A stretch of DNA of 17,335 nt, taken from the UHGV virus genome UHGV-1687067; one strand, written 5' to 3'. The position numbers and the translations under genes are program-made. Positions 1,228-12,792 of the stretch are shown here, in pieces. Every line of letters begins with the position of its first letter. The stretch's first letter is position 1. The notes beneath the pieces were generated by a model. The model was not told the origin of the DNA. It made no database searches and saw only the letters and a program-made list of their open reading frames with translations. The stretch is from a virus.

Positions 1228-1250
1228 AGTTTACAAAATGGCGTCATTGC

Positions 1251-1264
1251 GTGATGTGGATCAC
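1251..1264. promoter_or_regulatory. Inverted repeat GTGAT-GTGG-ATCAC (operator-like site, copy 1)
   Basis: 5-bp arms are exact reverse complements with 4-bp spacer; same half-sites recur at 7222-7235. Confidence 0.3.
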
Positions 1265-1282
1265 ATAATGGCGCTTTTCGTC

Positions 1283-1310
1283 TTGTTATGACGTATCCAT
1301 TTTGTATACT
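1283..1310 (+). promoter_or_regulatory. Candidate sigma70-type promoter (TTGTTA-16 nt-TATACT) upstream of the ninF-like/ninG/rusA/Q cluster
   Basis: -35-like TTGTTA (1283-1288) and -10-like TATACT (1305-1310), 16-nt spacer, in the 159-bp gap between methyltransferase and next gene. Hexamer matching only. Confidence 0.25.
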
Positions 1311-1386
1311 TCAAGCAAACAAAATGCTCTTTAAAAATCCGGCAGCGCTGAAATGCGTAGAAATCACCTGAAAAGGAGAGAGCATT

Positions 1387-2587: not shown

Positions 2588-2766
2588 AAAACGAAGTTAA
2601 AGATCTGCAAATAGATATTCAGCGCGACGAGCGTGATTTAGAGACGGTCCGACAAATCCAGGCTTTCCACATGCGCGAATTACTTGCGCTGAAAGAGTTC
2701 GAAAGAAAGCTGGTGCAATCCATTTCTGATCGTAAACGTCTGGCGGCACGTTATGAGGGCAAATAA
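2584..2766 (+). CDS. Hypothetical small protein (60 aa), charged, likely helical
   Basis: ORF with ATG overlapping rusA stop; translationally coupled to Q (TAATG at 2764-2768). No recognisable motif. Confidence 0.45.
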   Translation: MKNEVKDLQIDIQRDERDLETVRQIQAFHMRELLALKEFERKLVQSISDRKRLAARYEGK

Positions 2767-3494
2767 TGAATTTAGAATCCATTCTAAAATTCCACTTTCC
2801 TAAATCACCGCGATTATCTGACGAAAGCCGGGGCACGTCCCCGGACGCTCTTAATACGACGGATGCGCTAACCGCTGCGGGTATGGCGCAATCGCGCGTA
2901 GAGCTTGGATATAGCGCTTTTTTAGGGAAGATGGAACTATCACAAGCCGAAAAACACAGGGCCGTAGTTTTGCTTACAGAGCGTTTAAGGGCTATGGCGA
3001 AAGATTACGAATACGTGATGGAGTTAAACGAGGCACAACGCAATGATCTTATTATTCTTGTTTCCGTTTTCGCGTTTCGGGATTACTGCCAGAGTGCAGC
3101 GACCGAAAAAGTTTGCCCTAAGTGCGGCGGTCACGGGCATTTACCAAATCCATATTGCAAATACACATCAACAATTTGCGCACGGTGCGGCGGCAAAGGC
3201 TACGTTAAAAACCATTGCCAGCGGTGTAAGGGCCGTGGCGAAGTACCGGATAAAGCAGCCAGCGAAGCGGCGGAAATGCCAGTATTCAAAACGTGCCAGC
3301 ATTGCGGCGGGCGTGGGTACTCGCGTTTCCCGGTAGATCTCGTCCGGCAGGCGGTTAATCAGCTTGTTTTTCCGGTAAGCCGATCAACATGGTGGAAGAA
3401 ATACCGGGTTTTCTATGAAGACGCCATAGCGGAGCTATTCAAAGAAGAGGCCCGCGCGGAAAGCGAAATCAAACGAGTGACACGGGGTGAATAA
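2766..3494 (+). CDS. Q: Late-gene antitermination protein Q (lambda Q family) with four CxxCxGxG zinc-finger repeats
   Basis: N-terminus MNLESILKFHFPKSPRLSDESRGTSPDAL...AAGMAQS...GKMELSQ parallels lambda Q (MRLESVAKFHSPKSPMMSDSPRATASDSL...AAMGMAQSQ...GKHELSQ). Central region carries CPKCGGHG, CARCGGKG, CQRCKGRG, CQHCGGRGYSR. Confidence 0.85.
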   Translation: MNLESILKFHFPKSPRLSDESRGTSPDALNTTDALTAAGMAQSRVELGYSAFLGKMELSQAEKHRAVVLLTERLRAMAKDYEYVMELNEAQRNDLIILVSVFAFRDYCQSAATEKVCPKCGGHGHLPNPYCKYTSTICARCGGKGYVKNHCQRCKGRGEVPDKAASEAAEMPVFKTCQHCGGRGYSRFPVDLVRQAVNQLVFPVSRSTWWKKYRVFYEDAIAELFKEEARAESEIKRVTRGE

Positions 3495-3694
3495 TGGATA
3501 AGCTGGAAATAAACGATCAGTTTGCCGTTATCTTATTCGAAGATAAAACAGGCGGCGCATGGTGTAAGAAGGTCACTGGTGCTGAAGCACGCTTAATATT
3601 GGGTATGGCAAGCGCGTTAAATGAAGGCGAATTGCCCGCCATCCCTATTAAGCCTGTAAAAATTTACAAGCGTGGTGACGATGATGAAGCCTAA
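3494..3694 (+). CDS. Hypothetical protein (66 aa)
   Basis: ATG overlaps Q stop (TAATG); first gene of the tightly coupled small-gene island. Confidence 0.45.
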   Translation: MDKLEINDQFAVILFEDKTGGAWCKKVTGAEARLILGMASALNEGELPAIPIKPVKIYKRGDDDEA

Positions 3695-3956
3695 ATTAAA
3701 AGAGCATATTTACCGCCAGTTGGTTAACGATCTGACGGAAACGGCCCGTCATTACGCCGGAACACAACAGCTACGCGGGCGGTTATCTTCAGTTGTCAAC
3801 CGTTACATTGATACCGGATGTCATCGCAAAGGTGAAATCACGATGGACGAGGCCATCAAGCGCCGTTCTGCTGAATGGTCAGTGAGTAATACCGGATTAA
3901 CCGGATATATTGAAGGCTATAACGACTGTTTACAGGATCATAGCGATGGCAAGTAA
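3681..3956 (+). CDS. Hypothetical protein (about 91 aa)
   Basis: Track ORF begins at GTG 3672; internal ATG 3681 (MMKPKLKEH...) with GGTGA upstream is preferred. Confidence 0.4.
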   Translation: MMKPKLKEHIYRQLVNDLTETARHYAGTQQLRGRLSSVVNRYIDTGCHRKGEITMDEAIKRRSAEWSVSNTGLTGYIEGYNDCLQDHSDGK

Positions 3957-4254
3957 AGACCTGCATTTGAATCTGAAAGGGGAATATTTCCACGCTATCC
4001 GGGCGGGAAAGAAGGTGGAGGAATACCGGCTTTATAATGACTATTGGCGTAAACGTCTGGAAGGGCGGGAATATGAGCGCCTGATTATTAAATGGGGATA
4101 CCCTGCCAACCACGAAAAACACAGGATTATTAACCTTCCTTATTTTGGGTACGAAGTGAAAACTATCACACATCCATTATTCGGCACTGATCCGGTGAGA
4201 GTATTCGCAATTAAATGTGATGTGAATTGGATGTTAAGGTGGGTCGAGCAATGA
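3946..4254 (+). CDS. ASCH/PUA-like domain protein (putative)
   Basis: From ATG 3946: MASKDLHLNLKGEYFHAIRAGKKVEEYRLYNDYW... resembles the ASCH N-terminal signature (xLxxKxEYFxxIxxGxKxxExR), recalled from memory. Track start 3910 is TTG and rejected. Confidence 0.4.
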   Translation: MASKDLHLNLKGEYFHAIRAGKKVEEYRLYNDYWRKRLEGREYERLIIKWGYPANHEKHRIINLPYFGYEVKTITHPLFGTDPVRVFAIKCDVNWMLRWVEQ

Positions 4255-4463
4255 AAAGTAACCGTAAACGCCTTGTAAGGGCATATGACAAAGCATTAAT
4301 GACTTTTGATGATCTACGACACAATAAGCGCCGCCGCCGTAAATGGGCGCGTATGCTTGTTAGTGAATGGCATGATGAGGATTTTTTCCTTGAAGCCAGG
4401 CACATGACGCAGGATGTAGCGGACGCATTAGCTGACGAGAACGTTTATTACATGATGTGGTGA
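4251..4463 (+). CDS. Hypothetical basic protein (70 aa)
   Basis: ATG 4251 overlaps upstream stop (ATGA), AAGGTGGG upstream. Arg/Lys-rich (NKRRRRKWAR). Track start 4227 is TTG. Confidence 0.4.
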   Translation: MKSNRKRLVRAYDKALMTFDDLRHNKRRRRKWARMLVSEWHDEDFFLEARHMTQDVADALADENVYYMMW

Positions 4464-4467
4464 TAAT

Positions 4468-4833
4468 ATGCAAATAATCATTGATTATCTTTGCCATGCT
4501 GCAAATACGCTTTTTGGTTTTTATCAGCAACCATTCCTCAAAGAATGGGACGAAATGCTTAATGACATCATTGATAAAGGGTTAATAGTTGAAGTAGGCG
4601 AGCTAACTATAAAATTTAATTACGAAGGAAAAGAATATGATATATGGGTAGGCAACAGATGGTACGCATACGGGCATATTTATTCAATTGGCGGCAAATA
4701 CATTAAACGTAGCCAGGAGTTCAGACCGCGATTCCGCACAATGCGCCGCCTGCGTGACCTGCATATGAATATACTTGAAAATCAGGAAGCGTGTGAACTA
4801 TTCAAAATCTACGGAGATAAATCATGGAACTAA
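4468..4833 (+). CDS. Hypothetical protein (121 aa)
   Basis: ATG 4468, 4 nt after upstream stop; no recognisable motif. Confidence 0.45.
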   Translation: MQIIIDYLCHAANTLFGFYQQPFLKEWDEMLNDIIDKGLIVEVGELTIKFNYEGKEYDIWVGNRWYAYGHIYSIGGKYIKRSQEFRPRFRTMRRLRDLHMNILENQEACELFKIYGDKSWN

Positions 4834-5054
4834 AAATCTGGCAGGCTATCGACGTAGTTGATAACGCGTTATCTATGTTCGCCACTAACGGGAAACGCGT
4901 TGTGATAGCTACATGGACACGTAACCATGATGATATTGTTTTTCGTCGCAAGGCTGCGGAGTGGCTTTTCTCTGACAACGGCTACACGATGAATATCATG
5001 CAGCTTTCCAGAATGAAGGATGAAAAGCTGGTTGATAGTTACACAACTGCATAG
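4824..5054 (+). CDS. Hypothetical protein (76 aa)
   Basis: ATG 4824 overlaps upstream gene end; part of coupled array. Confidence 0.4.
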   Translation: MELKIWQAIDVVDNALSMFATNGKRVVIATWTRNHDDIVFRRKAAEWLFSDNGYTMNIMQLSRMKDEKLVDSYTTA

Positions 5055-5064
5055 TGGGGCAAAT

Positions 5065-5298
5065 ATGTGTATCTATGAACACAAGCGGGATAAAACCCGC
5101 TTTTTTGTTCGTGCTGGCGTGGCTTACCAGTATCACGACTGCGGATATATCGAGGCGCTTGCTTACGATCTGGACTTCGAACAAGAAAAAGAATGGTTCG
5201 ATTTCAAAATTTACCGGAAGCGTAAACCGACGCGCGACGAGCGACACGCTATCCGGGACTTTTTAATCAGCATAGACCGCTGGGAGACAGAGGAATGA
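5065..5298 (+). CDS. Hypothetical protein (about 77 aa)
   Basis: Preferred ATG 5065 (MCIYEHKRDK...) just after upstream stop at 5054; track start 5020 would overlap the upstream gene by 35 nt. Confidence 0.35.
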   Translation: MCIYEHKRDKTRFFVRAGVAYQYHDCGYIEALAYDLDFEQEKEWFDFKIYRKRKPTRDERHAIRDFLISIDRWETEE

Positions 5299-5582
5299 GA
5301 GCGAAGAAAACAGCAGATCAGAAAGCGTTAGTTATCACTACAACTGATGTGTCGTTATTCACGAAGGGTGAAGAAATAGATCTTAAATTACTTTTCGGCA
5401 TGTTTGAGCCACACGAAAAGCCGTGGTTCGTGCATGAAGACAAACAGGGAAATATGCGCGTAGTAGTGCCGGACAAAAACAGCGACATATTTTTTGCTAT
5501 TCCAGACCCGTTACATGACGGTGAATTGCTGGCGGTATTGTTGATCGCTGATGCTGTTACTTATAAAGGGAAAGAAATATGA
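5295..5582 (+). CDS. Hypothetical protein (95 aa)
   Basis: ATGA overlap with upstream stop; GGAG 8 nt upstream. Confidence 0.45.
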   Translation: MRAKKTADQKALVITTTDVSLFTKGEEIDLKLLFGMFEPHEKPWFVHEDKQGNMRVVVPDKNSDIFFAIPDPLHDGELLAVLLIADAVTYKGKEI

Positions 5583-5806
5583 AAGTTAAATTCTTGCACG
5601 ATCACGGCTACCCATCATTAAAACGCGTGGTAGGGGAAACGGTAGACGTTGTTCATTCTGATGATGTGACCTGCGTCATTTTGGGTAAAGACCTTATCGC
5701 TCACGGTGCTGATGATTACTACATTAACCCAGCGTGGTCATATACGTTTAGCCTGGGCGACTTCGTAGGCGATAAGGGGCGCGGCTTGCAAGTAGTCGAG
5801 GGTTAA
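5579..5806 (+). CDS. Hypothetical protein (75 aa)
   Basis: ATGA start/stop overlap at 5579-5582. Confidence 0.45.
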   Translation: MKVKFLHDHGYPSLKRVVGETVDVVHSDDVTCVILGKDLIAHGADDYYINPAWSYTFSLGDFVGDKGRGLQVVEG

Positions 5807-5810
5807 TATC

Positions 5811-6026
5811 ATGGACGTTTACGAAGATTTATACCTTCAAACAAATACCAGCACTTTTTATTTTTTGAAAAACGGCGTCGTATATCGCAGCGATGACGGG
5901 GTAATAATGAAAGAGTGGCTATTTAAACGCAAAGACCTACTTGATGACCTGGTTTTTGCCGGGATATTCCGTAAACGTCCGGCTAACCTGGAAGAAGAAA
6001 TGCTGATCGACGAGGTATTAAAATGA
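5811..6026 (+). CDS. Hypothetical protein (71 aa), possible member of the FxxNGxxY paralog family
   Basis: ATG 5811 with GAGGG upstream; contains FYFLKNGVVYRSDDG, resembling the N-terminal motif of the 6268-7219 paralogs. Confidence 0.4.
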   Translation: MDVYEDLYLQTNTSTFYFLKNGVVYRSDDGVIMKEWLFKRKDLLDDLVFAGIFRKRPANLEEEMLIDEVLK

Positions 6027-6268
6027 AAGTGAATTATTTCAGGGCAAAAGACAAGGCAACAGGAAAGCGGGTGGCTATCCTGGTTAATGAAGCAAATTAT
6101 ATGTTTGTTCTCCAGCCGTGGTGCATAGCTGACTATAACGATGATTATCGCCGTCACGCTGCGCGGCGGGCGGTCGGGATGAAAGGCTGGCAGCCTCGCG
6201 ACATGCTTAATTACTGCGACTGGAATCTGATAGCAAAATACACGGTCGATTATAAAGGGGTTTTCTGA
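6023..6268 (+). CDS. Hypothetical protein (81 aa)
   Basis: ATGA overlap at 6023-6026. Confidence 0.45.
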   Translation: MKVNYFRAKDKATGKRVAILVNEANYMFVLQPWCIADYNDDYRRHAARRAVGMKGWQPRDMLNYCDWNLIAKYTVDYKGVF

Positions 6269-6480
6269 TGCAAGTTAAATGCTCATACTCAAGCAATGAC
6301 AGTGTTTTCACGATTGGGAGTATTTATGACGTTCACATCGTTTATGGCAATGAAGCACACACAATGAGTAATTGCCTTGCCTTGATTGATAATCATGACG
6401 AAATATGGGTATTCAGGCCGAGCTATGAAGGCGGTGAAATATCCGGTGTAGGTTTTGCTGCCAGCTTTGAACGTTATTAA
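6268..6480 (+). CDS. Small paralog-family protein A (70 aa)
   Basis: ATG 6268 overlaps upstream stop; AAAGGGG upstream. Motifs FTIGSIY and IDNHDEIWVF align with the neighbouring three genes. Confidence 0.45.
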   Translation: MQVKCSYSSNDSVFTIGSIYDVHIVYGNEAHTMSNCLALIDNHDEIWVFRPSYEGGEISGVGFAASFERY

Positions 6481-6490
6481 AGGGGCAACA

Positions 6491-6748
6491 ATGAAACATT
6501 TATATTTTGAGGTATTGCAGACGCGCGACCGCAATATTTTTGAAGAAGGGAAGATCTATTGCGGCGTTCAACTCCACGGCGCACCGGGCGGTGATGGTGC
6601 AATGGCGATAACTGGCGATGATGATAAAGTTTATTTCGCTTATGTTAGCCATATCAATAACGCCGCTGGTTTGTATATTTATCGCATAGTGCATGATTTC
6701 CGTGAGATCGCGGAGTTTTGCGCCCGCGAAGGCAGTAAACCGGAATAA
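6491..6748 (+). CDS. Small paralog-family protein B (85 aa)
   Basis: Internal ATG 6491 (MKHLYF...) preceded by AAAGGGG, the same SD context as gene A. Motifs FEEGKIY and ITGDDDKVYFAY. Confidence 0.45.
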   Translation: MKHLYFEVLQTRDRNIFEEGKIYCGVQLHGAPGGDGAMAITGDDDKVYFAYVSHINNAAGLYIYRIVHDFREIAEFCAREGSKPE

Positions 6749-6758
6749 GTGAGGTGCT

Positions 6759-6998
6759 ATGAATCGGAAACATAGATACCAGTGCACATACTCACGATGC
6801 AGCGCGTTTTTTAAGAATGGCAAGATCTACGAGGTTGACGCGGCATTGGTTGACGCAAAGGATCAGGAATATATTCATGCCATTACTGACGACCAGGGGC
6901 AGTTATGGCGATTTTATAAGATGGGTTGTGGCACGGCGCTTGTTTATGCGCGTGCTGGTGGTGGTGCTTTTGCTGCGTTTTCGTATGTAGGGGTATGA
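6759..6998 (+). CDS. Small paralog-family protein C (79 aa)
   Basis: ATG 6759 with GTGAGGTG upstream. Motifs FFKNGKIY and ITDDQGQLWRFY. Confidence 0.45.
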   Translation: MNRKHRYQCTYSRCSAFFKNGKIYEVDAALVDAKDQEYIHAITDDQGQLWRFYKMGCGTALVYARAGGGAFAAFSYVGV

Positions 6999-7000
6999 AA

Positions 7001-7219
7001 ATGATTTTAACGTGTAACGAATCGAAATTGGGCTGTTTTGAGGAAGGCGTACAGTACACGGCTGAAAAACCGATGGGATTGTCTCCTAAATTTCCGTTTA
7101 TCGTCGTGACTGACACTTACGGTCACTTATGGTATGCAGGGCCGCTAGGCGGTATTGGTCGTTATGTTGTCCGTAGTTCGGATGGGGCGATGAAGGTTAC
7201 TTTTACGGAAGAAACGTAA
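7001..7219 (+). CDS. Small paralog-family protein D (72 aa)
   Basis: ATG 7001 (MILTCNESKLGCFEEGVQY...VVTDTYGHLWYAG); in-frame ATG 6995 also possible. Track start 6926 is a long extension in another gene's region and is rejected. Confidence 0.4.
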   Translation: MILTCNESKLGCFEEGVQYTAEKPMGLSPKFPFIVVTDTYGHLWYAGPLGGIGRYVVRSSDGAMKVTFTEET

Positions 7220-7220
7220 A

Positions 7221-7236
7221 TGTGATCTGTATCACA
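7221..7236. promoter_or_regulatory. Palindromic site TGTGAT-CTGT-ATCACA; fits CRP consensus half-sites TGTGA-N6-TCACA (operator-like site, copy 2)
   Basis: Exact 6-bp inverted arms around a 4-bp spacer, 2 nt after the stop at 7219, in a 98-bp intergenic gap. CRP consensus is textbook knowledge; binding is not demonstrated. Confidence 0.35.
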
Positions 7237-7245
7237 AGGTTTACG

Positions 7246-7282
7246 AAATGGCATTGTTTCGGCAGTGCCATTTTGTTATAAA
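7246..7282 (+). promoter_or_regulatory. Hairpin (AAATGGCATTG / CAGTGCCATTT) followed by T-rich run, overlapping a promoter-like TTGTTT-17 nt-TATAAA
   Basis: About 11-bp stem with one G-U wobble and 6-nt loop at 7246-7273, then TTTTGTT. TATAAA at 7277-7282 with TTGTTT 17 nt upstream. Could be terminator, attenuator or promoter. Confidence 0.25.
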
Positions 7283-7317
7283 GAAGCTGAAGAGAGAACG
7301 ATGCGGAGGGTAGAAAA

Positions 7318-7596
7318 ATGAAACGCTGGATTAACAAAGAAGTCGAATCTCGCTTAAACGCATTTTGGGAGATGGTGGAGAAAGAAGACCCAGCACACGC
7401 TGCAAGCCCTTACCTGAACAACATCGAATATCACTACATTGCAGCAAACAACGCGGAGTTCGAAGAAGAAGGTGGAGCCGACAAGTTCGCACAAAGCAAC
7501 GCATTCAACAACGCAAACGAAATGATGATGGCAGTCATCGAACAGGCAGAGGAAGACTACGAATGCAAATCACTTGAATTCGCACGTATGGCATAA
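7318..7596 (+). CDS. Hypothetical acidic protein (92 aa)
   Basis: ATG 7318 with GGAGGG upstream; first gene after the 98-bp regulatory gap. Net charge about -11 (19 Asp/Glu vs 8 Lys/Arg). Confidence 0.5.
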   Translation: MKRWINKEVESRLNAFWEMVEKEDPAHAASPYLNNIEYHYIAANNAEFEEEGGADKFAQSNAFNNANEMMMAVIEQAEEDYECKSLEFARMA

Positions 7597-7606
7597 GGGG
7601 GAAACC

Positions 7607-7747
7607 ATGAACGCTAACGCTAAATATCCGGCCTGGGTTTTCGAACTGTACGCAAGATACTTTGAATTACTGGCACAAGGTGAAGAAGCATTAAGCATTG
7701 ACGAGTACGCGGAGTGCTTAGGGTTTAAAGGAGACGAAGAAGCATAA
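7607..7747 (+). CDS. Hypothetical small acidic protein (46 aa)
   Basis: ATG 7607 with AAGGGGG upstream; MNANAKYPAWVFELYARYFELLAQGEEALSIDEYAECLGFKGDEEA. Not in ORF track (under 60 aa). Confidence 0.35.
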   Translation: MNANAKYPAWVFELYARYFELLAQGEEALSIDEYAECLGFKGDEEA

Positions 7748-7752
7748 AACAC

Positions 7753-7768
7753 GGGGCCGGATGGCCCC
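7753..7768 (+). other. GC-rich hairpin GGGGCC-GGAT-GGCCCC in intergenic gap
   Basis: Perfect 6-bp GC stem with 4-nt loop between genes ending 7747 and starting 7791; no following U-tract, so more likely a stability or processing element than a terminator. Confidence 0.3.
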
Positions 7769-7790
7769 ATCAAATCAGAAGGGTGTAATC

Positions 7791-8090
7791 ATGAAAAGCG
7801 CTAAATTTATTGCTTGCTGTTTTGTTGAAGTTCCTAACGATGATGTTTTCTGTAATTATGAATTTAAAGACAGCTTAGGCAGATCTCATGTTGTTGTTGG
7901 TAAGCGCGGCGACTGGTTATATATCACTGATGGAGACAGGATCTTCACTAAAAACCAGTTGTTAATAATAAAGGCAGAAAATGATGAAATACCAGTAGGT
8001 AATATGGGGATTATGAATTATCACGCTGGTTTATTGTTAAAGCACGATACGGTAAACAAAGCGCGTAGCTTACCTGGTGCGGAGTTTTAA
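7791..8090 (+). CDS. Hypothetical protein (99 aa)
   Basis: Internal ATG 7791 (MKSAKFIACCF...) with AGAAGGGTG upstream; track start 7761 rejected. Confidence 0.45.
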   Translation: MKSAKFIACCFVEVPNDDVFCNYEFKDSLGRSHVVVGKRGDWLYITDGDRIFTKNQLLIIKAENDEIPVGNMGIMNYHAGLLLKHDTVNKARSLPGAEF

Positions 8091-8093
8091 TTT

Positions 8094-8348
8094 ATGGAAA
8101 TAATCAAAATATGGCGCGGCAACAGTAAGGCTGACGGTGAGTTTTGCCGCGTCGTTCAATTCGTAAATTATGGTAGGTTTTACGAGCTACCTTATGACAA
8201 AAGGAAAGATGATTTCTATTTAAGCGAGTCAATCCCGGTGCACAGAAAAATAAAGGCGCTTAGGGGGTTATTGCGAAGTGGTTTTTATTCTTGCCCTAAC
8301 CCATTAAACAATCCTGAACTGGTAGCTATTTTTTACGAAGGAGAATAG
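8094..8348 (+). CDS. Hypothetical protein (84 aa)
   Basis: ATG 8094 with GGAG upstream, 3 nt after upstream stop. Confidence 0.45.
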   Translation: MEIIKIWRGNSKADGEFCRVVQFVNYGRFYELPYDKRKDDFYLSESIPVHRKIKALRGLLRSGFYSCPNPLNNPELVAIFYEGE

Positions 8349-8351
8349 ACA

Positions 8352-8675
8352 ATGTCTAAATTTATCAGCGTTAAAGTTTTCCGTGGCACTTTACCGAACG
8401 AAGAAAGATTAGGACAATTTGCCGGGCAACCTAGTGCATGTTTCCGTGTAGCCACTGAAGACGATGCGCATGTTAAATGCTTCCACGTATCGGAACCGCC
8501 TTTTAATGCAGACCATCTTGAAGACCCGGATAGAATTAAAAGCCTAGTTTTTGCCTATCTGATGTTCCAGGGTATCGCTAATATGGAAGTGGAATTGCTT
8601 GGCGCTGAACTGGCGGCAGAATACAAAGTGACTGAAGGCGAAAACGGAGGGGTGGAAATTGAGCGCATCAAATAA
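8352..8675 (+). CDS. Hypothetical protein (107 aa)
   Basis: ATG 8352 with AAGGAGAA upstream. Confidence 0.5.
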   Translation: MSKFISVKVFRGTLPNEERLGQFAGQPSACFRVATEDDAHVKCFHVSEPPFNADHLEDPDRIKSLVFAYLMFQGIANMEVELLGAELAAEYKVTEGENGGVEIERIK

Positions 8676-8910
8676 ACCTTACAAGATCCGGTGTAAAGGC
8701 GAATACCCTGGGTTTACGATTGGTTGCGAATACCTGGGCCACATTGGGTACGGCCCTTTCGGTGAGTTAGGGATGAATACGATGGACGACGACGGCGACA
8801 GCAGGACGCTTGATCTTGATTCTGATGATTTCGAATACATCCCTCCAGTTACTTACCGTGCCGTTGATGATTTCCTGGCTGAACATGAAGACGAGGGCGA
8901 TGATGATTGA
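8659..8910 (+). CDS. Hypothetical protein with strongly acidic C-terminus (83 aa), probable TTG start
   Basis: No in-frame ATG or GTG near the 5' end; TTG 8659 has GGAGGGG about 5 nt upstream. C-terminal half is Asp/Glu-rich (DDDGDSRTLDLDSDDFEY...EHEDEGDDD). Confidence 0.4.
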   Translation: MSASNKPYKIRCKGEYPGFTIGCEYLGHIGYGPFGELGMNTMDDDGDSRTLDLDSDDFEYIPPVTYRAVDDFLAEHEDEGDDD

Positions 8911-9097
8911 ATGCCTTATAGCTGTGATTGTTTTGCTTTATATCGCTGGCGCTATCCTGATGTCTTGTTTTATTAAGTTTAGCGGAGCTGAACCTGGCGG
9001 CCTTGAGATTCCTTTTTGGCCTGTGACTGTGTTTATCGCTTTCTTCGACGCTACGGCAGGGCAGATCAATCGAGCTATTAAGGAGCGCAAGAAATGA
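8903..9097 (+). CDS. Small membrane protein (about 64 aa, two predicted hydrophobic helices)
   Basis: ATG 8900 or 8903 in frame of track ORF 8810..9097. Translation MIECLIAVIVLLYIAGAILMSCF...FWPVTVFIAFF is hydrophobic; track N-terminal extension rejected. Confidence 0.4.
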   Translation: MIECLIAVIVLLYIAGAILMSCFIKFSGAEPGGLEIPFWPVTVFIAFFDATAGQINRAIKERKK

Positions 9098-9273
9098 TTG
9101 AAGATGGGGTGTACGCAACAGTAGTAGACGGGCTGTTTTACCGCGTAGAAGGTGATGATATTCGCATCCGCGTTGGCGGTGGTGAGTGGGTAGCGCCAAT
9201 CATTAAGACGACGCGAGAAACAATTAAAATATTTCTTGATGCTGGTGAACTGGTGAGGGTTAGCGACCTATGA
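9094..9273 (+). CDS. Hypothetical small protein (59 aa), paralog of the next gene
   Basis: ATG 9094 with AAGGAG upstream, overlaps upstream stop (ATGA). MIEDGVYATVVDGLFYRVEGDDIRIRVGG... Not in ORF track. Confidence 0.4.
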   Translation: MIEDGVYATVVDGLFYRVEGDDIRIRVGGGEWVAPIIKTTRETIKIFLDAGELVRVSDL

Positions 9274-9446
9274 ACGAGATCGAAGATGGTATCTATTTGC
9301 ATAAGGTATTTAACATCGTCTATTTACTTAAAGGTAATAAGGTGATGATAAGACCTGATGACGATCCACATTGGGAATCAAGCGACATGGATCGGCGGCA
9401 TATGCAAATGTTGGTTGATAACGGCCTGATATATAGAAAGCCGTAA
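9270..9446 (+). CDS. Hypothetical small protein (58 aa), paralog of the previous gene
   Basis: ATGA overlap at 9270-9273, GTGAGGG upstream. MNEIEDGIYLHKVFNIVYLLKGNKVMIRPDDD... shares the N-terminal (I)EDG(V/I)Y motif. Not in ORF track. Confidence 0.4.
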   Translation: MNEIEDGIYLHKVFNIVYLLKGNKVMIRPDDDPHWESSDMDRRHMQMLVDNGLIYRKP

Positions 9447-9453
9447 GCCGTAT

Positions 9454-9482
9454 TTGTAGGGCGTAAACAAACAGATTAAAAT
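9454..9482 (+). promoter_or_regulatory. Candidate late promoter (PR'-like): TTGTAG-17 nt-TAAAAT
   Basis: Hexamers with 17-nt spacer in the gap upstream of the holin, about 30 nt before an intrinsic terminator, as in the lambda PR'-tR' arrangement. Weak -35; inference only. Confidence 0.3.
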
Positions 9483-9510
9483 ATTTCCTAACAATGCGAA
9501 ATTGTAATTA

Positions 9511-9532
9511 CCCGGCCCCGCGCCGGGTTTTT
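9511..9532 (+). terminator. Rho-independent terminator (tR'-like) just upstream of the lysis cassette
   Basis: CCCGGC-cccgc-GCCGGG (6-bp GC stem, 5-nt loop) followed by TTTTT, about 20 nt before the holin SD (GGAGG at 9541-9545). Confidence 0.6.
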
Positions 9533-9552
9533 GCTTTGTTGGAGGAAAATCT

Positions 9553-9753
9553 ATGTTCGACAAAATACGGGAGGCGTGCGCGTATGTGACTGGGGCCGTA
9601 ACTGCTTTTTTCGGCGCGATAACCATCAATGACATTGCCGTCTTTGTGGGTATCTTATCAACCGTAGGCACATTTGCCGTTAACTATTACTTCAAATCAC
9701 AGGAGAACAAGCGAGCGCAAGAGGAACACGACGCGCGAATGGGGAATAAGTAA
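9553..9753 (+). CDS. Class II holin (pinholin, S21-like)
   Basis: 66 aa with two hydrophobic segments (AYVTGAVTAFFGAI; IAVFVGILSTVGTFAVNYYF) and charged C-terminus; immediately precedes a SAR endolysin; resembles phage 21 S (NLYFK vs NYYFK). Confidence 0.7.
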   Translation: MFDKIREACAYVTGAVTAFFGAITINDIAVFVGILSTVGTFAVNYYFKSQENKRAQEEHDARMGNK

Positions 9754-10245
9754 ATGATTAGCCAATCGCTGAAAAACAAGATTATTGCTGCGGCGGCTGG
9801 CGGGGCGATCGCTATTGCGGCTGTGATGGTTAAACCATTAGAAGGCGTGGAGTACGATCCGTATCGTGATGCTATCGGTGTATGGACTGTATGTTATGGT
9901 CACACCGGAAAAGACATTATGCTGGGTAAAACTTACACGCAATCAGAATGCGATGCTTTGTTAAACAAAGATCTCCACAAAACCGCAAAAGCGATTGACC
10001 CATATATTAAAGTCGAAATATCAGATTTTACCCGCGCGGCGCTTTATTCATTCGCCTATAACGTAGGCGCTACCAACTTCAAAACATCAACATTATTGAA
10101 GCTACTCAATGACGGCAAGAAATCGGAGGCGTGCGCACAGCTTAAACGCTGGATATATGCTGGTGGTAAGCAGTGGCAAGGGTTAATTAACCGCCGTGAT
10201 GTTGAATATGCCGTTTGCGAATGGGGTGAAACATGGACAAGGTGA
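9754..10245 (+). CDS. SAR endolysin (T4 lysozyme-like muramidase, P21 R-like)
   Basis: N-terminal Gly/Ala-rich signal-anchor-release segment ([17 protein letters not shown]) followed by [33 protein letters not shown], matching phage 21 R along its length, with the E-D-T catalytic spacing. Confidence 0.9.
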
Positions 10246-10703
10246 AGACGTTAATCATCGCCGTTGTTGTTTGCATTATTGCCGGGCTTACCGCCGTAAC
10301 GTGTTATTACCAGGGTGAGGCGGCAAGGTTACAGGAAGAAGTCACGGTGACGAAAGGCGCACTAAAAACAGCAAGTAACACTATCCAGCAGATGAAGGAG
10401 CGAAACGCCGAACTGTCAAAACTTGATAAGAGGTATCACGATGAGATTAAAGCTATCAGATCTGACATTGCCGATCTTCGCGCTGGCATTGATAGCGGTG
10501 CTATCAGGTTGCACGTCAACGCCGAGCCAGTGTACGTGCACGACGCCACCGGAACCGCCAGCAGCATTAATGGAGCCACCTGTAGACTTACTGCCAGTGC
10601 TCAATCAAATTATCTATCCCTCAGAGAACAACTAAAAGAGAAAGACGCGAAGATCACCGGATTACAGGACTACATCAAAACGCAGTGCATACGCAAAGAA
10701 TAA
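10233..10703 (+). CDS. Rz-like i-spanin
   Basis: N-terminal TM helix ([16 protein letters not shown]), coiled-coil-like middle, and RLHV...YLSLREQL...QCIRKE matching lambda Rz (RRLHIKA...YFTLRERL...EQCR). Overlaps endolysin 3' end. Confidence 0.75.
10441..10635 (+). CDS. Rz1-like o-spanin lipoprotein, embedded in +1 frame of Rz
   Basis: ATG 10441 with AGAGG about 8 nt upstream. [24 protein letters not shown] has lipobox LSGC; short Pro-rich mature region ([19 protein letters not shown]). Embedded architecture is classic. Confidence 0.7.
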   Translation: MRLKLSDLTLPIFALALIAVLSGCTSTPSQCTCTTPPEPPAALMEPPVDLLPVLNQIIYPSENN

Positions 10704-10858
10704 CAGCGCGCGGACGTGTCGCCGTTTCCGCCAGCCAGCCATAACCGGGCCAATCCTTCCCGCGAGCGACGGCGGAATAGTCAAAAACACGTAATACCGG
10801 ATCAACAGTCCCATTAACAGGTCAGGCGCTACCTGGGTAGAAGAAAGCGCCATTCACC

Positions 10859-10872
10859 AATTTTATAAAATT
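10859..10872. promoter_or_regulatory. Perfect 14-bp AT palindrome AATTTTATAAAATT in the 279-bp gap after Rz
   Basis: Self-complementary 14-mer in the long non-coding gap between Rz and the next gene; could be a promoter -10 region or protein-binding site. Confidence 0.2.
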
Positions 10873-10982
10873 CTGGAAACGGTACTGATGAAGCGCCGTT
10901 TTCAGTGTTTTATAACTGTTTTCACTCCCTGCGGTGTCGAGTTTTGCGGGGGTTATATTTTTCAGAATAGGAGATTATTCTG

Positions 10983-11525
10983 ATGGCTAAGGCTAAAGGC
11001 ATTAAATTGCCTCAATTTAAGATCCCACTCTTTGAGCATACAACCGTTTTCTTTTGCCCGACCCGCGAGATGTTCTATGAATTTTGCGAAAAGGCAGGAA
11101 TTCCGATTGAACCTGATTTCGAGTTGGCTGGAGGATTAACGCTTACTTGCACTGGCGAGAATGGTGGTAACTTCTACGTGATCGCAGTATTCAACAATGA
11201 GTTGGGAACGCTGGTCCATGAATGCGCCCACACTACATTCCACGTTTTAAGTGATGTAGGCGTCGTGGCTACCACGGATCCTACCCATCCGGCGAATGAG
11301 ACTTACGCTTACATGGTAGGCCGTATCTTCGATGCGTTTTTCCCTATCCTAGCAGAATCAAACGAAGCACAGGTTGCAGCAATGCAGGCGGCAGAAGTCG
11401 TCGATCAGGCGCTGGAACAGGCAGAACAGCCGAAGGAAGAAGAAAAGCCAGCGAAGAAAGGTAAACGTAAGCCGAAAGCAAAAGAAGCGCTTGTACCGCG
11501 TGTTATGAGTTTTAAACGAGGCTGA
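10983..11525 (+). CDS. Hypothetical protein with HExxH motif (possible zinc metallopeptidase-like) and Lys/Glu-rich C-terminal tail
   Basis: ATG 10983 with AGGAG 9 nt upstream. Motif LVHECAHTTFH (HExxHxxxH) in the middle; C-terminus low-complexity (EQPKEEEKPAKKGKRKPKAKE). Family not recognised. Confidence 0.5.
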   Translation: MAKAKGIKLPQFKIPLFEHTTVFFCPTREMFYEFCEKAGIPIEPDFELAGGLTLTCTGENGGNFYVIAVFNNELGTLVHECAHTTFHVLSDVGVVATTDPTHPANETYAYMVGRIFDAFFPILAESNEAQVAAMQAAEVVDQALEQAEQPKEEEKPAKKGKRKPKAKEALVPRVMSFKRG

Positions 11526-11527
11526 TT

Positions 11528-11617
11528 ATGATTGCGTCAATACTAACTTTCGTCGGCGGGATGGCGGCTGGATTCATCCTTTGCCTGTTTCTGGTAGTTA
11601 TGTCTATGCGAGACTGA
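11528..11617 (+). CDS. Micro-ORF 1: hydrophobic peptide, 29 aa (MIASILTFVGGMAAGFILCLFLVVMSMRD)
   Basis: ATG 2 nt after upstream stop, GAGG upstream; single predicted TM helix. Missed by ORF track (under 60 aa). Confidence 0.35.
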   Translation: MIASILTFVGGMAAGFILCLFLVVMSMRD

Positions 11618-11619
11618 TT

Positions 11620-11682
11620 ATGGACGCTTATTTATTTATCGGAATGGCGGCGGCTGTAATATTGTTTTTGTTGTGGAAGTAA
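11620..11682 (+). CDS. Micro-ORF 2: hydrophobic peptide, 20 aa (MDAYLFIGMAAAVILFLLWK)
   Basis: ATG 11620; N-terminus MDAY shared with micro-ORF 3; the same DNA context TGATTATGGACGCTTA precedes both. Confidence 0.35.
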   Translation: MDAYLFIGMAAAVILFLLWK

Positions 11683-11687
11683 TGATT

Positions 11688-11792
11688 ATGGACGCTTACA
11701 TCATTGCCGGATTAATCGGCGTTTCTGTGTTTCTTGCTGGTTCTATTATAGTTGCGCTGATAAACGTATATATCAAGTATTTGGTGGGGTGA
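11688..11792 (+). CDS. Micro-ORF 3: hydrophobic peptide, 34 aa (MDAYIIAGLIGVSVFLAGSIIVALINVYIKYLVG)
   Basis: ATG 11688 (in-frame ATG 11682 overlaps upstream TAA); paralog of micro-ORF 2. Confidence 0.35.
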   Translation: MDAYIIAGLIGVSVFLAGSIIVALINVYIKYLVG

Positions 11793-11797
11793 AAAAT

Positions 11798-11872
11798 ATG
11801 ATTGACCCGCTAATTATCCTTTCTGCCTGCGTCGCTGTATGGCTGGCGATCATGATATTCATTGAAAGCTGA
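11798..11872 (+). CDS. Micro-ORF 4: hydrophobic peptide, 24 aa (MIDPLIILSACVAVWLAIMIFIES)
   Basis: ATG 11798 with GGTGGGG upstream. Confidence 0.35.
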   Translation: MIDPLIILSACVAVWLAIMIFIES

Positions 11873-11883
11873 AGGTATCCACA

Positions 11884-11964
11884 ATGAACGCATACGAAAT
11901 GCTATTGCTGGTGGCTGTTATTACAGTTATTGCCGTAGATGTTTATCGGGAGTTTAAAAAATGA
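11884..11964 (+). CDS. Micro-ORF 5: hydrophobic peptide, 26 aa (MNAYEMLLLVAVITVIAVDVYREFKK)
   Basis: ATG 11884 with AAGG upstream; stop overlaps next start. Confidence 0.35.
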   Translation: MNAYEMLLLVAVITVIAVDVYREFKK

Positions 11965-12029
11965 AATGGCTTGATTTCTTTTTCCTGATCGTTGCGATTG
12001 TTCTCACTATGACCGCGCTTGCTCAATAG
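11961..12029 (+). CDS. Micro-ORF 6: hydrophobic peptide, 22 aa (MKWLDFFFLIVAIVLTMTALAQ)
   Basis: ATG 11961 overlapping upstream TGA; GGGAG upstream. Confidence 0.35.
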   Translation: MKWLDFFFLIVAIVLTMTALAQ

Positions 12030-12037
12030 GTGAAAGC

Positions 12038-12112
12038 ATGAACGCTATTGATATTATGTTGATCGTGTGTACCGTTGCATTAGTTATTATTGGGGTGATT
12101 ATCAATGTCTGA
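12038..12112 (+). CDS. Micro-ORF 7: hydrophobic peptide, 24 aa (MNAIDIMLIVCTVALVIIGVIINV)
   Basis: ATG 12038 with AGGTGA upstream. Confidence 0.35.
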   Translation: MNAIDIMLIVCTVALVIIGVIINV

Positions 12113-12173
12113 TGGTGATTTCTTAATCATGGCTATATGCACGCTGTTAACTGTTATTGTTTTCTTCGCGTAA
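12105..12173 (+). CDS. Micro-ORF 8: hydrophobic peptide, 22 aa (MSDGDFLIMAICTLLTVIVFFA)
   Basis: ATG 12105 overlapping micro-ORF 7 by 8 nt, GGGGTGA upstream; alternative start ATG 12129. Confidence 0.3.
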   Translation: MSDGDFLIMAICTLLTVIVFFA

Positions 12174-12182
12174 AGGTAAACA

Positions 12183-12266
12183 ATGAAAGAATTATTCGAT
12201 TGGTTGGAAGTATTAACATACTGTGCAAGTTTTGTTGCTTGCGTATATATCATCAATAAATATTGA
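12183..12266 (+). CDS. Micro-ORF 9: hydrophobic peptide, 27 aa (MKELFDWLEVLTYCASFVACVYIINKY)
   Basis: ATG 12183 with AAGG upstream; ends 10 nt before the terS start. Confidence 0.35.
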   Translation: MKELFDWLEVLTYCASFVACVYIINKY

Positions 12267-12276
12267 GAGGTGAATT

Positions 12277-12792
12277 ATGGCCCGCACTAAAAAGGCAAAA
12301 GCTGACGACAAAAAGCCAGCCGCAAAAAGGGTGGGCCGTCCGCATGGTTATACCGAAGAAAAGGCGTTAGAAATCTGTGAACTGGTGGCGGACGGTCAGA
12401 GCGTTAACAAAATTTCGAAGATGCCTGGTATGCCTACCCGTTCAACAATCCTGAAATGGTTTAGAGACGTGCCGGAATTCTCGGACATGTACATGCGCGC
12501 GAAGGAAATCGGCTTCGAGGTATTAGCTGATGAGATCCTCGATATAGCTGATGATGCTAAGAACGTTGATAAAGACCAACTACGCCGCCACCAATTAATG
12601 ATTGAAACGCGTAAATGGTTATTGGCTAAGCTACAACCGCGCAAATACGGCGAACGCGTCACACAGGAGATCGTCGGTAACAAGGAAGAAGCACCCGTCC
12701 AGGTAGAAGTAAATCAGACTACTGTCCTTGAGATAATCGATAACCTGAATAAGGAGTACAATACTCATGGAGACTGCGACGACAAAGATTGA
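12277..12792 (+). CDS. Terminase small subunit (putative)
   Basis: ATG 12277 with GAGGTGA upstream. Basic N-terminus (MARTKKAKADDKKPAAKRVGRPHGY), HTH-like segment (GQSVNKISKMPGMPTRSTILKWF), and position directly upstream of and overlapping the large terminase. Confidence 0.65.
   Translation: MARTKKAKADDKKPAAKRVGRPHGYTEEKALEICELVADGQSVNKISKMPGMPTRSTILKWFRDVPEFSDMYMRAKEIGFEVLADEILDIADDAKNVDKDQLRRHQLMIETRKWLLAKLQPRKYGERVTQEIVGNKEEAPVQVEVNQTTVLEIIDNLNKEYNTHGDCDDKD

Follow-up and report, generated by a model that had tools for sequence, protein, structure and literature searches.

A block of small genes at positions 3494-9446 in a stretch of the virus genome UHGV-1687067 is the subject of this analysis. 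The whole stretch of DNA that was analyzed comprises 17,335 nucleotides (nt) and is referred to as the window. The block, called the array in the following, lies in it between the gene of a Q antiterminator and the lysis genes. By megablast the 17.3-kb window belongs to a temperate coliphage of the mEp021-like type (mEpimmI). The closest match is MagusPhagus, which covers 90% of the window with 89.9% identity, and further matches were obtained to mEp010, mEp044, mEp554, mEp013, mEp021 and mEp515. Prophages of the mEp021-like type are present in 35 of 5,426 complete Escherichia coli genomes. The mEpimmI group consists of Nus-dependent, non-lambdoid siphoviruses which are common in human faeces, where they are reported to be as frequent as lambdoid phages (PMC11893012).

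According to the annotated relatives the order of genes is DNA methyltransferases, NinF, NinG, RusA, a gene for 60 amino acids (aa), Q, the array, the lysis genes, the terminases and the portal. The NinF, NinG and RusA homologues are found at 1387-2587 in the window, i.e., upstream of Q. The coordinates of all features are collected in Table 1, in which the genes of the array are numbered g2 to g25.

Gene Content and Packing of the Array

The array has a length of 5953 nt and contains 24 genes, all of them directed rightward and coding for proteins of 46-121 aa (80 aa on average); 96.7% of the sequence is coding. Open reading frames (ORFs) of at least 45 aa cover 0.98 of the plus strand, whereas shuffled sequences reach 0.27 (maximum 0.41); on the minus strand the covered fraction is 0.55. 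When the junction of Q with the first gene is included, 13 of the 24 junctions are overlaps (-1, -4, -10, -11, -17) and nine are gaps of at most 10 nt. Larger gaps exist only at 7220-7317 (gap 1) and 7748-7790 (gap 2). Scans for Rfam families and tRNAs gave no match within the array.

For comparison a set of 59 loci was used, including 45 loci from IMG/VR; 57 of these loci are complete. The stop codon of Q overlaps the next start codon in the sequence TAATG at 3491-3496, and the same place is occupied by TAATG or TGATG in all 57 relatives. In pooled comparisons with homologues from 13 relatives the ratio of non-synonymous to synonymous substitution rates (dN/dS) was 0.04-0.39 in all 24 ORFs. 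Because these values are similar to those of Q (0.15) and the holin (0.11), all 24 ORFs can be taken as genuine protein genes, and all of them are under purifying selection.

A preliminary description of this DNA had reported about 30 coupled small genes at 3494-9446. The array as such, its tight packing and its bounds were confirmed, while the number of genes had to be lowered to 24. The size range of 46-121 aa, the TAATG overlap at the end of Q and the positions of the only two gaps had been given exactly. The two acidic proteins and the small membrane protein mentioned there correspond to g17, g18 and g23.

Table 1. Coordinates and properties of the features found in the window (pI, isoelectric point; GRAVY, grand average of hydropathy; core, near-core and flexible refer to the occurrence in the 57 complete loci).
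Feature	Position	Strand	Description
Presumptive nutR2 region	1240-1360	+	hairpin with U run 1240-1285; boxA-like TGCTCTTTAA 1325-1334; small hairpins with A-rich loops; before NinF
Q antiterminator	2766-3494	+	242 aa; Pfam PF03589, E 3.1e-29, above cut-off; phrog_127, E 7.5e-77
g2	3494-3694	+	66 aa, pI 4.8; flexible, 52/57 relatives; start overlaps Q stop; phrog_35000; dN/dS 0.07
g3	3684-3956	+	90 aa; dN/dS 0.21
g4	3946-4254	+	102 aa; putative ASCH-like (PUA-like, RNA-binding); phrog_625, E 4e-35
g5	4251-4463	+	70 aa, basic; arginine-rich stretch RHNKRRRRKWAR; phrog_8758; dN/dS 0.21
g6	4468-4833	+	121 aa, largest gene; near-core, 55/57; phrog_16975; dN/dS 0.10
g7	4824-5054	+	76 aa; core, 57/57; dN/dS 0.14; adjoins Q directly in mEp021 and mEp515
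g8	5065-5298	+	77 aa; core, 56/57; most conserved, dN/dS 0.04; intragenic terminator-like hairpin
Terminator-like hairpin in g8	5083-5110	+	AAGCGGG-ATAAAA-CCCGCTT, then TTTTGTTC; codons 7-16; fold -19 kcal/mol, z -3.6
g9	5295-5582	+	95 aa; flexible, 35/57; dN/dS 0.09
g10	5579-5806	+	75 aa; near-core, 55/57; phrog_5009; dN/dS 0.08
g11	5811-6026	+	71 aa; core, 57/57; homologue of mEp021 gp41, 93% identity to mEp021 locus
g12	6023-6268	+	81 aa, basic; core, 57/57; phrog_38609; dN/dS 0.12
g13 (6268-6480), g14 (6491-6748), g15 (6759-6998), g16 (7001-7219)	6268-7219	+	tandem paralogous small beta-barrel proteins; all four flexible
CRP-consensus palindrome in gap 1	7221-7236		TGTGATCTGTATCACA, perfect; may be a plain RNA hairpin
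Gap-1 hairpin	7247-7283	+	11-bp stem AAATGGCATTG-TTTCGG-CAGTGCCATTT, then TTGTTATAAA; terminator-like; fold z -4.3
g17 (7318-7596), g18 (7607-7747)	7318-7747	+	acidic proteins between the two gap hairpins; g17 92 aa, pI 4.4; g18 46 aa, pI 4.1
Gap-2 hairpin	7751-7770		GC-rich, ACGGGGCC-GGAT-GGCCCCAT; no U run on + strand, one on - strand
g19 (7791-8090), g20 (8094-8348), g21 (8352-8675)	7791-8675	+	99, 84 and 107 aa; flexible/near-core; dN/dS 0.23, 0.08 and 0.39
g22	8659-8910	+	TTG start, 83 aa, acidic tail; phrog_25234 over full 83 aa; dN/dS 0.12
g23	8900-9097	+	65 aa; membrane protein, two hydrophobic helices, GRAVY 0.95; phrog_10061; dN/dS 0.33
g24 (9094-9273), g25 (9270-9446)	9094-9446	+	59 and 58 aa; tandem paralogues; phrog_15318 matches both; superfamily of g13, g15, g16
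Presumptive PR' with qut-like region	9454-9495	+	-35 TTGTAG 9454-9459; spacer AAACAAACAGAT; -10 TAAAAT 9477-9482; pause-like AACAAT 9490-9495
tR'-like intrinsic terminator	9510-9533	+	ACCCGGC-CCCGC-GCCGGGT, then TTTTT; about +21 to +44 from predicted start; fold z -3.5
Lysis cassette, start of late operon	9553-10703	+	holin 9553-9753, lysozyme 9754-10245, Rz-like spanin 10233-10703; annotations of relatives

The Q Gene and the Presumptive Late Promoter

By its sequence the Q protein of the window is homologous to lambda Q and P22 gp23 along its entire length. With tblastn it aligns to lambda Q over the full length with 32.9% identity (E 3e-29), and a match to P22 gp23 was obtained as well. In both lambda and P22 the late promoter PR' is located about 45 nt past the stop codon of Q. 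It is PR' that lies so close to Q in these phages, and not the holin, which the preliminary description had placed within about 100 bp of Q in lambda. In the P22 record the -10 element of PR' is TAAATT, transcription begins at the first A of AACGAT, this region is spanned by the qut site and the terminator tR' follows at +31 to +59.

A similar arrangement of a promoter-like sequence and a terminator was found at 9454-9533, directly ahead of the holin gene at 9553, as had been stated in the preliminary description. The hexamer AACAAT (9490-9495) takes the place of the AACGAT that lambda and P22 carry at +1 to +6. The spacing between the -10 element and the pause-like sequence is 7 nt in the window (TAAAAT, AACAAT) compared to 6 nt in P22 and lambda (TAAATT, AACGAT). 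The unit GATTAAAAT-N7-AACAATGCGAAA, i.e., TAAAAT-N7-AACAATGCGAAA, shows no variation in any of the 57 loci, and the spacer sequence AAACAAAyrGAT is conserved between the -35 and -10 regions. A motif of the TAAAAT-N7-AACAAT type occurs only once in the whole window; no second PR' motif was found. The terminator at 9510-9533 has an invariant stem and a variable loop in the 57 loci, and the flanking coding sequence varies. A terminator before the holin is also annotated in the records of mEp021, mEp010, mEp013 and mEp515.

The gene that follows Q is of three kinds among the 57 loci and resembles either g2, g6 or g7. Since this gene differs between the relatives and starts on the stop codon of Q, a promoter adjacent to Q is not conserved. 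A conserved promoter-like unit before the holin together with the lack of one after Q places the array upstream of the presumptive PR'. The sequence at 9454-9495 is most likely a PR' of the lambda/P22 type on which Q acts. From the stop codon of Q to the -35 element the distance is 5.96 kb, whereas it is about 45 nt in lambda and P22; thus Q does not adjoin its presumptive site in the window. As a further PR'-like unit the sequence at 4972-4999 (CTGACA-16-TATCAT), located before the terminator of g8, was considered and rejected, as it is not conserved and the relatives read CTGATG.

Within Q itself two stretches, 3051-3083 and 3183-3215, show a synonymous diversity of 0.02-0.04 in comparison to a mean of 0.20, a figure based on 19 distinct sequences only. 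They might reflect an element inside the gene comparable to the antisense promoters of lambda (paQ) and P22 (Pa23). A count of CII-type sites (TTGC-N6-TTGC) was uninformative, with 22 found and 24 expected.

The Array as Variable Locus of the Family

The distance from Q to the holin ranges from 2,003 to 7,253 nt among the 57 loci, with a median of 5,562 nt. The relatives carry 8-31 ORFs in this interval which fall into about 49 families, and 49 different gene-content strings were counted among the 57 genomes. The relative order of the genes is fixed in all 57 loci. Fixed order combined with differing content indicates that the variation arises via gain and loss of single cassettes and via tandem duplication. 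Six families, those of g6, g7, g8, g10, g11 and g12, are found in at least 55 of the 57 genomes. Gene g25 is present in 13 of 13 annotated relatives, but its family reaches only 46 of 57 under stricter clustering and is therefore not counted as core.

The smallest arrays are those of mEp021 and mEp515, which kept eight of the genes and lack 16 of the 24; both are viable phages. As in a nin-type region, natural variants without most of the members exist, and about six genes are never lost. The array is thus the main variable accessory-gene locus of the mEpimmI family and not an insertion in this particular genome. The term "island" of the preliminary description, which implied an inserted segment, is not supported by the comparison with 57 relatives, which shows a family-wide locus with about six core genes in fixed order. 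As a finding that would speak against its own reading, the preliminary description had named a block conserved in relatives with known functions; the locus is indeed conserved, whereas assigned functions were not encountered. In the work on the mEpimmI phages the flexible genes are reported to concentrate in a "regulation cluster", and no account is given there of the array or of a late promoter set apart from Q (PMC11893012).

Some cassettes of the relatives are not present in the window. A PAPS-reductase/PP-loop protein of 276 aa (PF01507, E 2.5e-9) is encoded in the array of three of the 57 genomes (e.g., L022, 13514-14344), and no other cassette has an annotation resembling that of an enzyme. 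Another flexible cassette of 115-136 aa, found in L016 (10856-11266) and 24 other relatives, carries a DnaJ-type CxxCxGxG zinc finger, for which the Pfam E-value is 8e-4 and a similar motif exists in Q. Among the ten commonest families missing from the window only the rare PAPS-reductase domain and weak hints of a DnaJ-type zinc finger and of KilA-N were obtained.

Hairpins and Promoter-Like Sequences Within the Array

Three conserved hairpins are located inside the array. The stem of the terminator-like hairpin within g8 is preserved throughout the 59 loci, with a single G-U change. In mEp010 a compensatory synonymous double change is found (CGG to CGC together with ACC to ACG), and the synonymous diversity over the hairpin is 0.03 in comparison to the mean of 0.20. 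The ARNold terminator T8 of the mEp515 record falls inside the homologue of g8. The hairpin in gap 1 is present in 45 of 59 loci regardless of the downstream gene, and the changes in its stem are wobble-compatible. In our own alignment of the locus the ARNold terminator T8 of mEp010 overlaps its position. The hairpin in gap 2 was found in 44 loci including that of mEp021; its changes are again compatible with G-U pairs, and it is retained also where another gene follows. Because of these three conserved hairpins inside the block it is unlikely that transcription is simply continuous, and expression would depend on processive antitermination.

Gap 1 also contains the single perfect match to the CRP consensus in the window; matches with at most one mismatch amount to three, compared to 0.39 expected. 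The acidic genes g17 and g18 (7318-7747) are flanked upstream by the gap-1 hairpin, the extended -10-like sequence TGTTATAAA and the CRP palindrome, and downstream by the GC-rich hairpin without U run. Comparable promoter or terminator signals were found at the flanks of no other array genes. The pair g17-g18 is the best candidate in the array for a semi-autonomous unit.

Protein Families Encoded by the Array

Searches with the 24 array proteins in Pfam, NCBIfam and the PDB sequences yielded no significant match for any of them, but a sub-threshold match to ASCH. Every protein matches a PHROG, all of these being of "unknown function". This agrees with the preliminary description, according to which no array gene could be given a function by sequence. 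Matches to nin families were not obtained for any of the 24 proteins in Pfam, in PHROGs or in the annotations of the relatives.

At least five genes (g13, g15, g16, g24 and g25) belong to one superfamily of small beta-barrel proteins. The preliminary description had proposed two paralogue families; the paralogy is confirmed, whereas the two families are merged into one superfamily by profile comparison with 96% probability. By structure this family resembles the small beta-barrel accessory protein Gp54 of phage Bas11 (PDB 9AXB), and comparison of the two gave the same fold. The likeness is restricted to the fold, as a profile search of the PDB sequences detected no sequence link to 9AXB and the identity is about 10%. 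Gp54 of Bas11 is a non-essential protein of 66 aa and unknown function, which acts as direct activator of the CapRel-SJ46 defence; according to a speculation of its discoverers it serves to inhibit a different defence system (PMC11578894). At the sequence level the homologues of the beta-barrel family are E. coli prophage proteins only (81 clusters). When 1.84 billion representatives were searched exhaustively with a profile, 26 proteins were obtained, of which the long ones matched in multiple stretches are probably spurious. Among predicted viral structures the family matches uncharacterised small proteins, mostly of enterobacterial phages.

A search for phage relatives outside the group gave 490 matching records, and the following statements hold among the matches listed (60 of the 490). 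Relatives outside the family were found for g3, g4, g5, g6 and g17 only, and those of g3, g5 and g6 are weak; at least 18 of the 24 proteins are without such relatives. The gene g4 is the only one with many relatives in lambdoid, P22-like, Stx (Shiga toxin) and P1-like phages. In phages of the lambdoid, P22-like and Stx types its homologues (50-60% identity) are neighbours of eaa/ea22, and others are found in P1-like phages. Homologues of g17 with 52-61% identity are encoded by dozens of virulent rV5-like myophages (Vequintavirinae) including BASEL isolates. The relatives in rV5-like phages indicate that g17 is an accessory gene common to a temperate siphovirus family and lytic myoviruses.

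The assignment of g4 as putative ASCH protein in the preliminary description agrees with the RefSeq and GenBank names of homologues with 50-95% identity, which are labelled ASCH or RNA-binding. In Pfam, however, the match to ASCH (PF04266) stays below the gathering threshold (E 0.078, 14.1 bits in comparison to a cut-off of 21.2) and covers only the 25 residues 8-32. The N-terminal 35 residues of g3 form a module that is common to several PHROGs of unknown function, and the weak relatives of g3 lie in the pmgT/pmgU region of P1. The arginine-rich stretch RHNKRRRRKWAR of g5 recalls the RNA-binding motifs of N-type antiterminators; the sole family match of g5 is a PHROG of unknown function. For g6 the AlphaFold model from the single sequence had a predicted local distance difference test score of 38 and was unusable.

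The homologue of g11 in mEp021, gp41, is annotated as "virion structural protein". It was found in virions by mass spectrometry, for which the authors used the word "mislocated". Homologues of g11 were obtained from E. coli only (54 clusters). The gene calls in the region of g22 and g23 are supported by those of RefSeq in strain MS 21-1.

Taken as a whole, the array products appear to be small soluble binders, with at least five beta-barrel paralogues and several acidic helical proteins, accompanied by the ASCH-like protein and the small membrane protein.

A Probable Antitermination-Gated Array Beyond Q

The site nutR2 has been described 3' of the cytosine methyltransferase gene (PMC11893012), and this position fits the region at 1240-1360. 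Judged by its sequence elements this region is the presumptive nutR2, at which the N-like Gp17 complex would be loaded upstream of NinG, RusA, Q and the array; the hairpin with U run in front of it is probably the terminator that precedes nutR2. An apparent likeness of gap 1 to the hairpin region at 1228-1300 is not above chance, with a score of 32 compared to a maximum of 34 for shuffled sequences.

That the array belongs to the same operon, which is a trait of nin-type regions, we infer from the upstream nutR2-like site and the lack of a conserved promoter. Read-through from the Q operon is the simplest model, because the late promoter is conserved before the holin and none is conserved after Q. 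The co-transcription with the Q operon that the preliminary description had suggested is thus retained in the form of read-through; simple continuity is not, given the three hairpins and a possible separate internal unit. We therefore regard the array as probably a nin-like early accessory array which is gated by antitermination, lies beyond Q as the distal part of the rightward delayed-early operon and ends at PR'/tR'.

The reality and packing of the genes, the architecture throughout the family and the conservation of the promoter, terminator and hairpin sequences are shown by the data. The model that we infer for the timing, the dependence on Gp17, the action of Q at the promoter at 9454-9495 and the function of the proteins is as follows. 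After induction or infection, polymerase coming from the early rightward promoter would be made resistant to termination by the N-like Gp17 at nutR1 and nutR2. The modified polymerase would cross Q and then the array including the three embedded hairpins or terminators. The array proteins would be made early to middle together with Q, and only under active antitermination. Q would then act in trans on PR', which is located 6 kb past the Q gene, and turn on the genes for lysis and morphogenesis.

Several observations weigh against this architecture. The -35 element TTGTAG of the presumptive PR' is weak (3/6), and about one quarter of the relatives have the unrelated TCGCGC instead. In addition, the alleles of the -35/spacer region of PR' and of Q do not co-vary over the 2-7 kb that lie between them. 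The presence of a homologue of the core protein g11 in virions fits a late or structural role better than an early one. The tail of the gap-1 hairpin can also be read as an extended -10 element, TGTTATAAA (7274-7282). The centre of the CRP palindrome is about 61 nt ahead of the start that this element implies, which is the geometry of a class-I activator site. By these sequence elements the genes at 7318-9446 might have a promoter of their own in gap 1. The internal hairpins could also truly terminate transcription and split the array into separate units. Finally, the searches of the 24 proteins in Pfam, NCBIfam, PHROGs and PDB sequences revealed no known anti-defence or takeover protein.

Alternatively, part or all of the array, especially 7318-9446 or 7318-7747, could consist of morons with their own promoter and terminator, which would be expressed in the repressed prophage instead of in lytic growth and benefit the lysogen, e.g., by exclusion, defence or effects on host physiology. 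The terminator-like hairpin of gap 1 with its extended -10 element and the perfect CRP site upstream fit this explanation, as do the acidic pair g17-g18 between conserved hairpins that persist as the neighbours change, and the GC content of the array, which is slightly below that of the flanks (0.442 vs. 0.47-0.48). However, only about half of the 45 relatives have retained the right half-site of the CRP palindrome, and the conservation of TGTTATA is explicable by the U tract of the terminator alone. All genes are co-oriented and overlap or nearly abut like those of an operon, and in Pfam and PHROGs no PADLOC-type or known exclusion domains were seen (PADLOC itself was not run), so that we consider morons an unlikely explanation. 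A late role, in which the array would be part of the Q-dependent late regulon and serve lysis timing, DNA packaging or virion parts, would reduce the hairpin before the holin to a mere internal attenuator. The g11 homologue identified in purified virions of mEp021 and the poor -35 of the proposed PR' are in line with it, and about six strictly conserved genes would be expected of phage-essential functions. On the other hand, the motif of promoter plus pause is absent after Q and elsewhere in the window, the sequence after Q differs between relatives, and the invariant unit of TAAAAT-N7-AACAAT and terminator copies PR' of lambda and P22. Moreover, most array genes are dispensable in nature, as seen for the 16 of 24 lacking in mEp021 and mEp515, and a late role is accordingly quite improbable.

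It could also be argued that the array is a collection of selfish or near-neutral minigenes at a permissive recombination site, which have little effect on fitness and in which the hairpins mark module junctions. The extreme turnover with 49 gene-content combinations in 57 genomes would fit, as would the tandem duplicates and the at least 18 of 24 proteins without phage relatives outside the family among the matches listed. We hold such a filler to be very unlikely, since every gene is under purifying selection (dN/dS 0.04-0.39), gene order is fixed with a conserved core set, and the hairpins are conserved at synonymous sites.

For an antitermination-gated early accessory array, a role in modulating host processes or host immunity during lytic growth is the most likely function of the cargo, and we propose it tentatively. 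The resemblance of the beta-barrel family to Gp54 of Bas11, which is sensed by a defence system, speaks for this model. The preliminary description had compared the array to the host-takeover or anti-defence early gene blocks of lytic phages. As a statement on function this is still a guess, with no known protein of this kind found by sequence. As a likeness to early accessory blocks it is reasonable, as g4 and g17, the sole genes with wide relatives among the matches listed, occur in early accessory regions and in virulent phages. A bolder version, which we consider rather doubtful, would see in the array of this gut-prevalent phage family a dedicated antitermination-gated locus of counter-defence and host-takeover cassettes, whose diversifying Gp54-like beta-barrel paralogues and acidic proteins inhibit or decoy immune sensors of the host. 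The accessory genes would then have been moved past Q as an adaptive rewiring, by which Q is made without crossing the embedded terminators and the cargo stays strictly dependent on the N-like protein.

Comparison to Known Phage Systems

The nin region of lambda and P22, located between the replication genes and Q, is alike in its co-oriented small genes with ATGA-type overlaps in a delayed-early operon antiterminated by N, in its intrinsic terminators (tR2-tR4) that are overcome by antitermination, and in its largely dispensable genes of mosaic content. In contrast to it, the bulk of the array lies past Q, so that its terminators cannot gate the expression of Q. Before Q only homologues of NinF, NinG and RusA are located, and there is no nin homologue among the 24 array genes. 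In other phages with homologues of Q, namely lambda, P22, Erwinia phage Eho49 and Proteus phage Brookers, the distance between Q and the lysis genes is 0.4-0.8 kb, with the small nin genes placed ahead of Q.

With the Q/PR'/qut/tR' switch of lambda, P22, phage 82 and phage 21 the window shares the homologous Q, a -10 followed by a -10-like element at +1 to +6 and a close terminator ahead of the lysis genes. It differs in the distance between the Q gene and its presumptive site, which is 2.0-7.25 kb among the loci as opposed to about 45 nt, and in the weak and variable -35 element. In Stx phages cargo such as stx, tRNAs and nanS-p is carried between Q and the lysis genes downstream of PR'/tR', where its expression is Q-dependent and late. 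The array resembles these and other lambdoid morons in that a temperate enterobacterial phage has extra genes between Q and the holin. However, its position is on the upstream side of the PR'-like site, and early expression is predicted for it.

The early regions of lytic phages (T7 class I, the plastic periphery of T4, BASEL phages) are similar in their dense, tiny and family-restricted genes, which are expressed early and are rapidly gained and lost. The array differs from them by its location in a temperate phage, by the lambda-style gating through antitermination, and in that no member is a characterised takeover or anti-defence protein.

Other Features of the Window

Downstream of the array the lysis cassette is followed by the small terminase gene at 12277 and then by the genes of the large terminase and the portal. 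An ORF in another frame is located inside the Rz-like gene at 10441-10635, which is the expected position of an Rz1-type o-spanin. The spacer from Rz to the small terminase (10704-12276) is of low GC content, with 0.38-0.41 at 11500-12250. An inverted repeat at 10863-10915 resembles a terminator after the lysis cassette. Furthermore, the spacer contains recurring starts of micro-ORFs, GAG(G/A)CTGATTATG, at 11517 and 11609, and a direct repeat of 29 nt at 11615 and 11683. Several ORFs of 29-40 aa are annotated in the matching spacer of MagusPhagus.

Significance

We consider the locus moderately unusual, namely in the split of 2-7 kb between Q and its presumptive site, the extreme turnover within a fixed order and the terminator inside a core gene. 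The terminator in g8 is a clean case of overlapping constraints on protein and RNA. The functional darkness of the array makes it a good target for screening rather than a discovery in itself. With about 49 families the locus represents a natural combinatorial library of small proteins, and in the tractable system of an E. coli K-12 phage it would offer a practical screen for inhibitors of bacterial immunity or host processes.

For the family, the array amounts to about one tenth of each mEpimmI genome that is uncharacterised. The phages also provide a natural test of the question whether a lambda-type Q must be encoded beside its site of action. Current models stand, and the lambda paradigm is extended to a relative that is wired differently.

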